Below are positions 11,670 to 59,759 of a stretch of DNA of 64,000 nt, one piece after another. A model generated the notes under the pieces. That model saw only the letters and a list, made by a program, of their open reading frames with translations. It had not been told where the DNA came from and ran no database searches. Positions within the stretch are counted from its first letter, which is position 1. Every line of letters starts with the position of its first letter. The DNA lies in the sequence record NC_054922.1; one strand, written 5' to 3'. Made by a program: the position numbers and the translations under genes. The stretch is from Escherichia phage vB_EcoM_KAW1E185.

Positions 11670-12272
11670 TTATAGATTAAATCCTTCAAAATCAAGAGTA
11701 TAGATAGTGTATGTTGAATACTTTTTGTACTCATATCTATCTGCAATTCTAAATACACTTCCAGCTGGTATCATTACTTCTTGTTCATCTGAAACTAATT
11801 CCATATTACGATAACGATGGCTATCCGGAAACTTAAAGTTTGGATTGTATTCTTTACAGCGTAGAGCTTTTATAGCATACTCCTGGAAATTGAATACCAT
11901 AGGAGCTTTGAATTCAAAAATAACTTGTGTGTTATATTCTAAACCAGAAGCAAAATGTAGAGCTATATTTTTATCATATGAAGCTGATACTACTTTATCA
12001 AATGTAATAATATCAATTCCTTGATTTAATACTTGTTTAGTCTCAGCTGGAACACCTCTCCAAAGAGGTTTATCGTTTGGAACCAAACGAGATTTGATTA
12101 TTTCATTTAACCAAGTATGGTCATCTGGTTTGTTGGTAATACAATGAATTAAAAGTTCAATTTCAGATAAATTAAACCCTTCAGAAAGCAATTCTTCACG
12201 AATAGAAGCACGCACCGATGCATCCATTGATTTTATTTTAAAATCTTTTAGTTGCATTACTGAGTATTTCAT
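11670..12272 (-). CDS. modA: ADP-ribosyltransferase ModA
   Basis: 200 aa as in T4 ModA; R (LWRGV), S-x-S (SAS) and E-x-E (EQEVMIP) motifs. Confidence 0.75.
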   Translation of the reverse strand: MKYSVMQLKDFKIKSMDASVRASIREELLSEGFNLSEIELLIHCITNKPDDHTWLNEIIKSRLVPNDKPLWRGVPAETKQVLNQGIDIITFDKVVSASYDKNIALHFASGLEYNTQVIFEFKAPMVFNFQEYAIKALRCKEYNPNFKFPDSHRYRNMELVSDEQEVMIPAGSVFRIADRYEYKKYSTYTIYTLDFEGFNL

Positions 12273-12892
12273 TCAACTACCTCAATATCATAAACTTTAA
12301 ATGTTCCAAATGAATCGTGTAATTTTTCTTTTGAAATAGAAGTTATTTTATACTTTCCAATTGGAATCATCCATTCTTGTTCATGCACAATCATCATTAA
12401 GTTATCAGTACGCTCTGAATCTAATCCATCAGTATCTTCATATGTATACTTAAACTCAGTATTAGGAGAAGAAAGTATAATATCGCTGATATGGTCAGAA
12501 TAATTAAAAGCTTTATCAGTTTTTAAACGAAGTATTGTTTCAGTGAAATATTCAGCATAAGAAAAAGAACACGCTGTGTGTAAACTAGTAGTAAATGAAT
12601 CTACCCTGTTCGTTGAAAACACTTCTCCAACCTGTAAATCTTTAATAAGTTCTTTTGTCGATTTTGATATACCACGATATAATTGATAAGGCGATTTAGT
12701 TAAATGCTTTTTAATGATTTTATTCAACTGTCTGTGAAGAGCTTCATTCTTTTTGGCTTCCATACATTGCCAAAGAACAGACTGCTCGAAGTCAGTAAAT
12801 TTTTCACAGACTTTTTTATACATATCATATTGAAAATCAACGCTTTCAGCTTTTATAGATAACTGTTCAACATCTGCAGGATTAATAATCAT
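12269..12892 (-). CDS. modB: ADP-ribosyltransferase ModB
   Basis: 207 aa as in T4 ModB; paralog of ModA; 4-nt overlap with modA. Confidence 0.75.
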   Translation of the reverse strand: MIINPADVEQLSIKAESVDFQYDMYKKVCEKFTDFEQSVLWQCMEAKKNEALHRQLNKIIKKHLTKSPYQLYRGISKSTKELIKDLQVGEVFSTNRVDSFTTSLHTACSFSYAEYFTETILRLKTDKAFNYSDHISDIILSSPNTEFKYTYEDTDGLDSERTDNLMMIVHEQEWMIPIGKYKITSISKEKLHDSFGTFKVYDIEVVE

Positions 12893-17749: not shown

Positions 17750-17794
17750 TTAACCTCTATTCATAAAAGCATTAAAAATTTGGTCATCAATAGA
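17750..17794. repeat. 45-bp direct repeat, copy A (3' end of the 118-aa gene)
   Basis: ttaacctctattcataaaagcattaaaaatttggtcatcaataga; one mismatch to copy B. Confidence 0.8.
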
Positions 17795-18106
17795 TGGCGC
17801 AGTAATATTTTCTGCATCATTTAGCAAATCATTAATTTCATCAGATAGCATAACACATGTACCTTTATTTCCTGTAATTGTTACTGCACAATTACGAACG
17901 TTTTCTTTATCAAATTTTAGGTTAATATTTTCGTAGTGAAAATCCTTTAATGCTGAATATATTTTTAAAATGAAATTGTCTTTTACTACAATAAACCCAA
18001 CCTCACTATTAAAACGCGGTTCATGGAAACTGTAATAAACCTTTTCATCTATAAAATCGTATGAAATTTTTTCCATTTTTAAATATGAAAATTCAGAACT
18101 ATACAT
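17750..18106 (-). CDS. hypothetical protein (118 aa) sharing its C-terminus with the adjacent 208-aa protein
   Basis: ends SIDDQIFNAFMNRG. Confidence 0.45.
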   Translation of the reverse strand: MYSSEFSYLKMEKISYDFIDEKVYYSFHEPRFNSEVGFIVVKDNFILKIYSALKDFHYENINLKFDKENVRNCAVTITGNKGTCVMLSDEINDLLNDAENITAPSIDDQIFNAFMNRG

Positions 18107-18107
18107 A

Positions 18108-18152
18108 TTAATCTCTATTCATAAAAGCATTAAAAATTTGGTCATCAATAGA
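18108..18152. repeat. 45-bp direct repeat, copy B (3' end of the 208-aa gene)
   Basis: ttaatctctattcataaaagcattaaaaatttggtcatcaataga. Confidence 0.8.
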
Positions 18153-18734
18153 AACATTTGCTTTAGACTGTTTTTCTGATGGTAATTCATATCCACATAT
18201 TACAATTTTGTGATCAATATCAAAATACACAGAAGCAATATGATTAATGTTGTTTTCAGTAAAGTCTAAATCAACATCAATATCTTTTTGACCACAGCCC
18301 AAAGGATAAATAATGCGAGTAATTCGATTATCTTTAACAAATATTCCACCGACATACTCTGTGCTGCGTTTAAAGTCTACACGCCGACGAAATGAAAAAT
18401 ATTCAGGCTCTCTATGAGCTCGGCTCATAGGACACAACGAGTAACTAGAATAAGAGATGTCAAATCCTACGCCTTCGATATGAGCCAAAGTGTCATGATT
18501 AAACCAATTATAATCGTACGCCAAATCCATTAGATTATAATATGTAAAAGGCACCGGATTAACATCATTAGTCACAAGCATGTAATTAGCAACTGCTATA
18601 ATTTCATTGTTTTTAACGAATACAAACCGTGATTGATGCGAATGACCTGGACCCGCGTTTTCACGATTAATGATATAACACTGGGCACCTTTATATTTGT
18701 ATGTATCTTTGCACTTGTGCATTTGATAAAGCAT
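18108..18734 (-). CDS. hypothetical protein (208 aa), 61.2 position
   Basis: ends SIDDQIFNAFMNRD. Confidence 0.5.
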   Translation of the reverse strand: MLYQMHKCKDTYKYKGAQCYIINRENAGPGHSHQSRFVFVKNNEIIAVANYMLVTNDVNPVPFTYYNLMDLAYDYNWFNHDTLAHIEGVGFDISYSSYSLCPMSRAHREPEYFSFRRRVDFKRSTEYVGGIFVKDNRITRIIYPLGCGQKDIDVDLDFTENNINHIASVYFDIDHKIVICGYELPSEKQSKANVSIDDQIFNAFMNRD

Positions 18735-57649: not shown

Positions 57650-57831
57650 AAGGAATTTATATAATTAATAAGTTCTTGTTCTTTATTATCGAATTCTTTA
57701 GAAAGTTCTTCGTACTCGTTTGCACTAAAAGGACCGCATTCATTACAAACTTTTTCCAATTCGCTATTTTTATCCATAACTTCGTGGATAAGAGAAAAGA
57801 GTTTGTCTTTTTGTTCTTTGCTTAGGCTCAT
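57646..57831 (-). CDS. small protein (61 aa)
   Basis: ORF; MSLSKEQ start; 4-nt overlap with the next ORF. Confidence 0.4.
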   Translation of the reverse strand: MSLSKEQKDKLFSLIHEVMDKNSELEKVCNECGPFSANEYEELSKEFDNKEQELINYINSL

Positions 57832-58001
57832 ATATTAATTTCCAGAAGTTTTAAAATAATTCGCTTTTGCTTAAATATTTCCATAGTTAAATGATCAGTA
57901 TCTTTTTGACCAATTCCAATGGCAAAACCTTTATTAGCAGCGAGTTCAATTAAATTATCAAGTTCACGTAACACTTCGTACTGTAACTCAGAACTATTCA
58001 T
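57828..58001 (-). CDS. small protein (57 aa); below ORF-track cut-off
   Basis: own translation MNSSELQYEVLRELDNLIELAANKGFAIGIGQKDTDHLTMEIFKQKRIILKLLEINI; ATGA overlaps at both ends. Confidence 0.4.
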   Translation of the reverse strand: MNSSELQYEVLRELDNLIELAANKGFAIGIGQKDTDHLTMEIFKQKRIILKLLEINI

Positions 58002-58210
58002 TTCGGTTTACCTTCTTTAACGAAATCTGGATAAGGATAAAATCCCGAATAAAATCCTTCACCTTTATGATTGACGCATCCTTTATTAGAACAATAGCAC
58101 CAATAATCGAAATCACAAGCCATTTCATCGTTGCATAAAGCAAAAACAACCGGCCACTTACACTTTTCACAATGGGCATTTTTAAGAATACTAGTTTGGC
58201 TCATAACCAT
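57998..58210 (-). CDS. Cys-rich small protein (70 aa), likely zinc-binding
   Basis: eight Cys residues in CEKCKW...CNDEMACDFDYWCYCSNKGC. Confidence 0.45.
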   Translation of the reverse strand: MVMSQTSILKNAHCEKCKWPVVFALCNDEMACDFDYWCYCSNKGCVNHKGEGFYSGFYPYPDFVKEGKPK

Positions 58211-58413
58211 GTCACCTTTAAGCAGTATTCTTCTACATGCTGTTTACGACCTTTCTTATCAATAAAGGTATATTCAACGAATGTTCCAATGTAGTCTTTA
58301 TCTACATCATGTGGACTATTAATTGGACATTTAGTACGGCAAATGCGTTCCCATTGACGAATAATTACTGCCTTATTCTTTGGGTCATACGGATGTGGAT
58401 AATGTATATTCAT
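58201..58413 (-). CDS. hypothetical protein (about 70 aa)
   Basis: ORF track 58201..58428; ATG immediately after the macrodomain stop is the likelier start. Confidence 0.4.
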   Translation of the reverse strand: MNIHYPHPYDPKNKAVIIRQWERICRTKCPINSPHDVDKDYIGTFVEYTFIDKKGRKQHVEEYCLKVTWL

Positions 58414-58877
58414 AATAACGGTTCCCAATCAACAATCACAATTTCTAATTTAGAGGAATATGTATCTAAAATCCCCTCAATAATATCCCAGTTCCCTTTA
58501 CCTATGCCTGCACCAATCCTAGGCATATAGATTGTAGGTTTAATCAGTTTATTTTCACCAAACTCATTTAATTCTAACATACAATTCATTAAAGCGGAAT
58601 ACTCAAAATTTGGCCCCGGTTGAAATTGAGTATAAAGATTGAAGCAGTAAGCTTTATGAGTCCTAAAGTATTTTTCATAGACTGAGTAAGAACCGAGTTT
58701 AGTTACATCGCCCCATTCTGTCTGTAATTTATCAGCTTCCAAAATCTTAGGAAAAGCTTTAGCTAATTGACCAGCTACTCCTGATCCCATCGTGTGGAAA
58801 CAGTTACAGCCATGAGCGATATTTTTACCTTCAGCGAAAAGGGCGACAATATCGCCCTTGATATATTTTACAATCAT
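58410..58877 (-). CDS. macrodomain protein (ADP-ribose binding/processing, MacroD/YmdB-like)
   Basis: GDIVALFAEGKNIAHGCNC, GSGVAGQLAK and C-terminal IGAGIGKG motifs typical of macrodomains. Confidence 0.65.
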   Translation of the reverse strand: MIVKYIKGDIVALFAEGKNIAHGCNCFHTMGSGVAGQLAKAFPKILEADKLQTEWGDVTKLGSYSVYEKYFRTHKAYCFNLYTQFQPGPNFEYSALMNCMLELNEFGENKLIKPTIYMPRIGAGIGKGNWDIIEGILDTYSSKLEIVIVDWEPLL

Positions 58878-59221
58878 CTAGTACTCAATCCTCGATTATA
58901 AGAATCTACTAAACGGTCAACCATTGAATGACAAGCGGCTTTATCTTTCTCCTCCGCAACTGAACATTCTAAGGTATTCCACTTTTTAGCATATCGTTTT
59001 AATAATGTATCATTTTTGTATCTGCTTGATTTATCTCTTTCTCCGTCTTTATATGCATATATTAATTTCTGTGCAAATTCAGCTTGGCATGCTTTATTTT
59101 TCCCACAATAATCTGCCGCAGTGCGGTTTACATATTCTCTAATTTCAGTATATGATGTATCTGCTGATGCAGAAGCAGAAAATGAAATTAATCCTATACA
59201 TAAAACCAAAATTTTAGTCAT
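58874..59221 (-). CDS. vs: Vs (valyl-tRNA synthetase modifier)-like protein
   Basis: 115 aa with N-terminal signal-like segment; size and position match T4 vs. Confidence 0.5.
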   Translation of the reverse strand: MTKILVLCIGLISFSASASADTSYTEIREYVNRTAADYCGKNKACQAEFAQKLIYAYKDGERDKSSRYKNDTLLKRYAKKWNTLECSVAEEKDKAACHSMVDRLVDSYNRGLSTR

Positions 59222-59759
59222 TTACTATTTCCAAAAGTTTATTATTTTTAAGGTAATTAGCCTTTTCTAGGACTTCAGAAGCATATTTAGAACCAGCTTT
59301 AACATTCCATCCCGAATTATAAGAGGATATTGCTTTTCTTATATCGCCCTTATGTATATTTAACCAATAAGAAAGTTCAATGTACGCCCATGAAGCTGAA
59401 TTGGATCGTTTATTCAACATTCTTTTTATTTCAGCATCGGTCATATTATAACCAAGTTCCTTAACTCTTGCTCGCATAGTAGGCAAATAATTTTGGAACA
59501 TTCCATAGGCGTGATGCTTTGGTTTAGATTTTAAATTAACTCCGCCAGAGCTTTCTTGCCATAAAATGGCTGCCATTATATGACCTAATCCGCTCTTGTG
59601 GATATTTTTATGTGTTTTATATTTTCCATCCTTAGAAAATTGTTCCCCGAATTGATACGCGTAACGCATGTTATCGAGTTGGACATTACTGAAAGTATGC
59701 TCGGAGCTATGTGCCATCATTGAAATGGCCAATAGACCAGCGAGTAGTGCTTTTCTCAT
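59214..59759 (-). CDS. lytic transglycosylase-like protein (vs.1 position)
   Basis: signal peptide; QESSGG...GMFQ catalytic-region motif. Confidence 0.55.
   Translation of the reverse strand: MRKALLAGLLAISMMAHSSEHTFSNVQLDNMRYAYQFGEQFSKDGKYKTHKNIHKSGLGHIMAAILWQESSGGVNLKSKPKHHAYGMFQNYLPTMRARVKELGYNMTDAEIKRMLNKRSNSASWAYIELSYWLNIHKGDIRKAISSYNSGWNVKAGSKYASEVLEKANYLKNNKLLEIVND

Follow-up and report, generated by a model that had tools for sequence, protein, structure and literature searches.

The ALC1-like/TARG1-like class of macrodomains, which comprises TARG1, DarG, SCO6735 and Poa1p among others, has been assigned the reversal of thymidine ADP-ribosylation (thymidine-ADPr) as its 'unifying function' (PMC9411070). 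DarG (T. aquaticus 5M31/5M3E, M. tuberculosis 5M3I) has a catalytic lysine, Lys80, within an FPTK motif, as well as a C-terminal DarT-binding domain and an adjacent darT gene; human TARG1/OARD1 (4J5R/4J5S) has the catalytic dyad Lys84/Asp125; and yeast Poa1p (6LFQ) is an Appr1p phosphatase. Streptomyces coelicolor SCO6735 and Bacteroides BT1257 (PDB 5E3B, 2FG1/2AFC) are Gln-type members of the class. SCO6735, a cellular enzyme and not a phage counter-defence factor, differs from the lysine enzymes by a glutamine (Gln85), yet outpaces both DarG and TARG1 in cleaving dT-ADPr and relieves E. coli of DarT toxicity; it is inactive as Q85A and nearly inactive as N27S (PMC9411070). Specific to this subclass are a valine or isoleucine at position 25 of SCO6735 and a mobile loop that exceeds the one of DarG/TARG1 by five residues (PMC9411070).

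Phage counterparts have come from two directions. In 2025, the HIDEN-SEQ study (bioRxiv 10.1101/2025.11.20.689424; a preprint, not yet peer reviewed) tested a transposon library of T4 on a host expressing DarTG2, obtained tk.4 as the single significant hit, and found that a clean deletion of the gene makes T4 sensitive to DarTG2. The authors renamed it adfM (anti-DarT factor, Macrodomain) and remarked on its structural similarity to M. tuberculosis DarG, going no further on enzymatic removal of ADP-ribose from DNA than that it 'seems likely'. The discovery filled an earlier gap, because T4 without adfA and adfN had stayed resistant to DarTG2 (PMC11825919). Independently, PhiKZ gp104 was also named AdfM, and was shown biochemically to strip ADP-ribose from DarT2-modified TNTC DNA (PMC13309987). 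The paper on CmdTAC (PMC11618068) offered no link between macrodomains and counter-defence, macrodomains appearing only in its reference list.

Here we describe a macrodomain gene in Escherichia phage vB_EcoM_KAW1E185, within a stretch of 64,000 nucleotides of record NC_054922.1 that was analysed as a whole and is called the window below. The gene and its immediate neighbours are as follows.

58874..59221, minus strand: vs (valyl-tRNA synthetase modifier), directly upstream of tk.4, identified from the ORF list and the 303Ecol101PP and T4 annotation
58410..58877, minus strand: tk.4/adfM macrodomain ORF, 155 aa, ATG start, a stand-alone domain of the ALC1-like/TARG1-like class
58201..58413, minus strand: tk.3 homologue with DUF7202, 70 aa with the ATG at 58413 as start, directly downstream of tk.4
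57998..58210, minus strand: small ORF between the tk.2 and tk.3 homologues, 68-70 aa, 'Phage zinc binding domain' PF23895 (E 3.7e-29)
57828..58001, minus strand: small ORF between the tk.2 and tk.3 homologues, 57 aa

The macrodomain ORF is the orthologue of T4 tk.4, now adfM. In the T4 reference genome (NC_000866), tk.4 (NP_049723, 155 aa) occupies the same slot between tk.3 and vs, with equal length, strand, position and overlapping-codon arrangement, and the order tk-tk.1-tk.2-...-tk.3-tk.4-vs-vs.1-regB is shared. The two proteins agree at 154 of 155 residues, the single difference being A39T (Ala39 here, the family consensus, and Thr in T4). Across the 1.4 kb searched (57900-59300), the DNA matches that of the Tequatrovirus Escherichia phage 303Ecol101PP at 100% identity, and there the ORF is labelled 'macro domain-like containing protein' and placed between vs and the '8.5 kDa' tk-vs protein. 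The T4 reference describes NP_049723 as 'phosphatase; contains A1pp phosphatase motif', and the gene has been part of that annotation for more than 20 years. A first-pass annotation, made from the sequence alone, had called the 155-aa ORF at 58410-58877 a macrodomain protein, and every motif that it quoted is present; it had also taken canonical T4 to lack a macrodomain at this position, which was wrong, since tk.4 with its A1pp motif annotation fills the slot. An extra gene relative to T4 is therefore ruled out. The macrodomain is real, but both the gene and its anti-DarTG2 role were already known (T4 tk.4/adfM, 2025) and, with the T4 gene long annotated and that role reported in 2025, the locus carries little weight as a discovery.

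Gene junctions on both sides of tk.4 are overlapping. Read directly from the sequence, an ATGA joins the TGA stop of vs to the tk.4 start codon, and a further ATGA joins the tk.4 stop to the tk.3 start codon; the vs/tk.4 overlap suggests co-transcription and translational coupling. In the HIDEN-SEQ preprint (bioRxiv 10.1101/2025.11.20.689424), vs is the T4 gene most strongly depleted in minimal medium relative to LB, and vs and tk.4 are therefore two conditionally essential genes lying back to back with overlapping codons. By domain, the neighbours of tk.4 are vs, vs.1 (SLT domain), tk.3 (DUF7202, Pfam E 2.1e-38; annotated in 303Ecol101PP as '8.5 kDa protein in tk-vs intergenic region') and a small zinc-binding protein, and no DarT domain was found among them. 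In T4, tk.3 follows directly after tk.2, without the two small ORFs at 57828..58001 and 57998..58210; matching ORFs seem to be present in T2 and many relatives.

The GC content of the macrodomain ORF (35.9%) is close to that of the window (34.3%) and thus gives no sign of recent foreign origin. Between 56 and 61.5 kb, promoter-like sites numbered 20 against 21.7 expected by chance, and the same scan returned no terminator on the minus, coding strand. Shortly past the start codon, codons 7-13 of tk.4 contain a GC-rich inverted repeat with perfect 8-bp arms, AAGGGCGA...TCGCCCTT (58839..58859), which was scored as terminator-like on the non-coding strand. The coding-strand RNA at 58839-58859 is not significantly more stable than its shuffles (z -1.6; 14/200 shuffles).

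Tk.4 matches Pfam Macro (PF01661) over residues 22-132 with 27.9 bits against a gathering cut-off of 22 (E 2.5e-6), and PHROG 335 with E 2.5e-66. It has the three-layer alpha/beta/alpha macrodomain fold with glycine-rich phosphate-binding loops, G31-S-G-V-A-G36 and I121-G-A-G-I-G-K-G128. Its relatives rank in this order, with the score of each.

1: BT1257 (2AFC), 18.5
2: Poa1p, 17.8
3: M. tuberculosis DarG, 17.6
4: T. africanus DarTG, 17.0
5: TARG1, 16.9
6: first coronavirus/MacroD-type domain, 13.7

Foldseek returned the same set of relatives, and searches of PDB sequences with both the single sequence and the family profile agree with the ALC1-like set. Because its closest structural and sequence relatives all belong there, Tk.4 is an ALC1-like/TARG1-like macrodomain, in the class of TARG1, DarG, SCO6735 and Poa1p, and not one of the MacroD, viral Mac1 or PARG type. 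The comparison with MacroD and DarG macrodomains put forward in the first-pass annotation thus comes out on the side of the ALC1-like/TARG1-like set, DarG included, with the first coronavirus/MacroD-type domain in sixth place.

The predicted active-site pair of Tk.4 is N25 and Q84. Aligned with hhalign, the Tk.4 family matches DarG with a probability of 98.9% (E 3.8e-17), placing N25 on DarG N22, Q84 on the catalytic K80 and LYTQ on FPTK; MAFFT likewise puts Q84 on K80. The match to BT1257/SCO6735 also has a probability of 98.9% (E 2.7e-17) and sets Q84 on SCO6735 Gln85, and N25 aligns with SCO6735 Asn27. By hhalign score, Tk.4 is equally far from the DarG and SCO6735 groups. Against TARG1, Q84 falls on K84 in the profile alignment, and Gly126 stands opposite the dyad partner D125 in the multiple alignment. 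Among 119 family members, with homologues down to 34% identity, glutamine occupies position 84 in every one and asparagine position 25 in all but one (118/119), and the glutamine is kept in the distant homologues of Felixounavirus CL1, Pakpunavirus PaGz-1, Kuttervirus ST-W77 and Streptomyces phage Gilson. Since SCO6735, an active thymidine-ADPr hydrolase, has the same substitution, the missing lysine in Tk.4 is not a loss of function. The possibility that catalytic residues might be missing on alignment, raised in the first-pass annotation, is thus borne out for the DarG/TARG1 lysine, which is replaced by glutamine, and not for the asparagine, which is kept, nor for the glutamine itself, which is that of an active enzyme.

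This Q84/N25 pattern is the one point that goes beyond the literature, and on alignment it would link T4 AdfM mechanistically to SCO6735 and not to DarG or to PhiKZ AdfM. Membership of the DarG family proper is ruled out: the NCBIfam DarG equivalog (NF048014) scores Tk.4 at 29.9 bits, far below its cut-off of 250 and over profile positions 2-146 of 338 only, and Tk.4 has no catalytic lysine, no C-terminal domain and no neighbouring darT. PhiKZ gp104 (PMC13309987), in contrast, is a Lys-type homologue of DarG that matches the Mtb protein with E ~9e-25 to 1e-24 and retains K78, the lysine of FPTK. A single 23-residue, 21-bit BLASTP match connects gp104 to Tk.4 and, set against the strong DarG match of gp104, rules out a common family. 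T4 AdfM and PhiKZ AdfM thus appear to be separate recruitments from different subclades, with different predicted active-site chemistry.

Nor is Tk.4 simply an SCO6735 orthologue. It has the Gln and Asn pair in common with SCO6735 and BT1257, but identity to them is only 20-29%, and their mobile loop has 5-6 extra residues directly after the glutamine, where SCO6735 carries Lys89 and Lys94. SCO6735 Val25, proposed to position the catalytic water, corresponds to an invariant Gly23 in Tk.4, and SCO6735 Lys34 to Ser32. Because Val25 and the longer mobile loop are absent, the SCO6735 mechanism is not simply transferable to Tk.4.

Gene identity, fold, class and residue pattern were read from the locus itself, and the anti-DarTG2 phenotype is taken from the T4 literature. 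Together, they are consistent with the following model. The bacterial DarTG2 defence releases DarT2, which places ADP-ribose on thymidines in single-stranded DNA and so blocks replication. Tk.4, presumably expressed together with its neighbours (regB-vs.1-vs-tk.4-tk.3...), would target these marks on the single-stranded DNA of the phage and possibly of the host, binding ADP-ribose with the cleft of its macrodomain and hydrolysing the thymine-ribose bond, whereupon the DNA would be restored and replication could proceed. It would act as an 'orphan antitoxin' that does without the toxin-binding domain of DarG, using a putative lysine-independent Asn/Gln active site (N25, Q84) as in SCO6735 in place of the lysine type of DarG and TARG1. 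Judging by the T4 phenotype and the similarity of the active sites, Tk.4 itself probably hydrolyses dT-ADPr, with chemistry that may resemble that of SCO6735. We consider it likely that this account holds as a whole, with the tk.4/adfM orthologue as a single-domain, Asn/Gln-type ADP-ribosylglycohydrolase that undoes the DNA marks of DarT2. A role in countering DarT-type DNA ADP-ribosylation, which the first-pass annotation had suggested, matches the published genetics of the 99%-identical T4 Tk.4/AdfM (bioRxiv 10.1101/2025.11.20.689424).

Three other explanations are each less likely than this hydrolase model. Tk.4 could be a non-catalytic inhibitor that binds DarT2 or shields ADP-ribosylated DNA without hydrolysis, as might be expected from the absent canonical lysine and from the phage anti-DarT factors AdfA and AdfB, which work through toxin binding (PMC11825919). 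The inactive mutants SCO6735 Q85A, DarG K80A and TARG1 K84A keep the capacity to inhibit DarT in vitro through interaction, SCO6735 most strongly (PMC9411070). Against this, Q84, N25 (itself in 118/119) and both phosphate-binding loops are invariant among the 119 homologues (identity as low as 34%) and in four other phage families, and an invariant pocket fits conserved catalysis better than it fits a toxin-specific binding surface. Furthermore, the C-terminal DarT-binding domain of DarG has no counterpart in the 155 residues of Tk.4, which align to positions 2-146 of the 338 in the NCBIfam DarG profile, and we regard pure inhibition as improbable. Slightly less credible still is the historical annotation of Tk.4 as a small-molecule enzyme, either an ADP-ribose-1''-phosphate phosphatase like Poa1p or an O-acetyl-ADP-ribose deacetylase, serving nucleotide housekeeping during infection. 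Homology is the sole basis of that phosphatase/esterase assignment, and Poa1p has a serine at the position of the invariant Tk.4 glutamine ('FTSS' versus 'YTQF'). Weak small-molecule activities in vitro are, as is generally known, common in this macrodomain class without being the role of its members. Moreover, the one phenotype that tk.4 has shown in T4 is specific to DarTG2 (bioRxiv 10.1101/2025.11.20.689424).

The remaining alternative starts from the ADP-ribosyltransferases of the phage itself, with Tk.4 erasing or tuning the marks that Alt, ModA or ModB set by protein ADP-ribosylation or RNAylation. As the first-pass annotation had it, the window includes genes for ModA (11670-12272, minus strand, 200 aa) and ModB (12269-12892, minus strand, 207 aa), which match PHROG 832, 'RNA polymerase ADP-ribosylase', with E 1e-33 and 6e-42, and SCO6735 and TARG1 can also remove Glu/Asp-linked ADP-ribose from proteins (PMC9411070). 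The functional link that it drew between these enzymes and the macrodomain finds no support: some 46 kb separate modA/modB from tk.4, and the genes are not inherited together as a module. The T4 enzymes (Alt, ModA, ModB) modify arginine, and TARG1-class macrodomains are not known to cleave the arginine linkage. Homologues of tk.4 are spread widely among phage families, with examples in Felixounavirus, Pakpunavirus, Kuttervirus and Streptomyces phages, and Alt/Mod are known as T4-type enzymes. As tk.4 was also dispensable in the T4 screen except under DarTG2 (bioRxiv 10.1101/2025.11.20.689424), we hold self-directed erasure to be very improbable. The reading or degradation of NAD-derived (Thoeris) signals, a further suggestion of the first-pass annotation, found no support either, and its interpretation is, overall, partly supported.

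With hydrolysis of DarT2 marks as the preferred explanation, the remaining value of the locus is mechanistic, and lies in the glutamine of T4-type AdfM at the position of the catalytic lysine of DarG, TARG1 and PhiKZ AdfM. One name, AdfM, therefore covers two active-site solutions, the Gln type is shared by several phage families, and the DarG mechanism should not be carried over to T4 AdfM by homology alone. A wider proposal, which we put forward tentatively and think rather less probable than not, is that T4-type AdfM is an independently recruited, lysine-independent (Asn/Gln) macrodomain present in about 5% of sequenced phage records, as opposed to a stripped-down DarG, and that it may erase thymidine-ADPr on DNA, uridine-ADPr on RNA and Glu/Asp-ADPr on proteins, like SCO6735 and TARG1. 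If so, T4-type AdfM would serve as a broad eraser, effective against at least two defences based on ADP-ribosyltransferases, and its chemistry would differ from that of PhiKZ-type AdfM.

Homologues of tk.4 were found by tblastn in 2849 of 50,697 phage records, from phages of Escherichia, Klebsiella, Salmonella, Pseudomonas, Vibrio, Acinetobacter, Aeromonas and other hosts. Cellular relatives beside DarT were also considered, and the two matches labelled as bacterial MAG proteins (P0085, P0086) were rejected as such. Both sit on contigs that carry Rnl1, a Dda-like helicase, PNK and spanin, a T4-like phage context only, and are thus uninformative on cellular origin. The proteins nearest to Tk.4 in the database, these two among them, come from contigs of T4-like phages. 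On two distant T4-like phage contigs assembled from metagenomes (L004, 69-371; L005, 41-343), the order is DUF4326, Rnl1 RNA ligase, a small ORF, the macrodomain and then a Dda-like helicase, so that the position of the gene next to vs is not fixed in the wider family. A gene for nicotinamide phosphoribosyltransferase, an enzyme of NAD salvage, adjoins a Gln-type macrodomain in some unrelated phages, Pseudomonas phage PaGz-1 (L008, 1-96) and Acinetobacter phage phi1_092033 (H53), an adjacency that hints at a link between modules for ADP-ribose erasure and NAD replenishment.

The window also holds a gene for an anti-DarT1 factor, together with a related stretch.

18114..18734, minus strand: adfA (T4 gene 61.2), encoding the anti-DarT1 factor, with 95.7% identity to its T4 counterpart over 207 aa
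17753..18046, minus strand: stretch directly downstream of adfA, matching the C-terminal half of AdfA at 35% identity (tblastn E 1e-6)

Going by this similarity, the stretch at 17753..18046 could be a diverged AdfA-like paralogue in the 'anti-TA island'.
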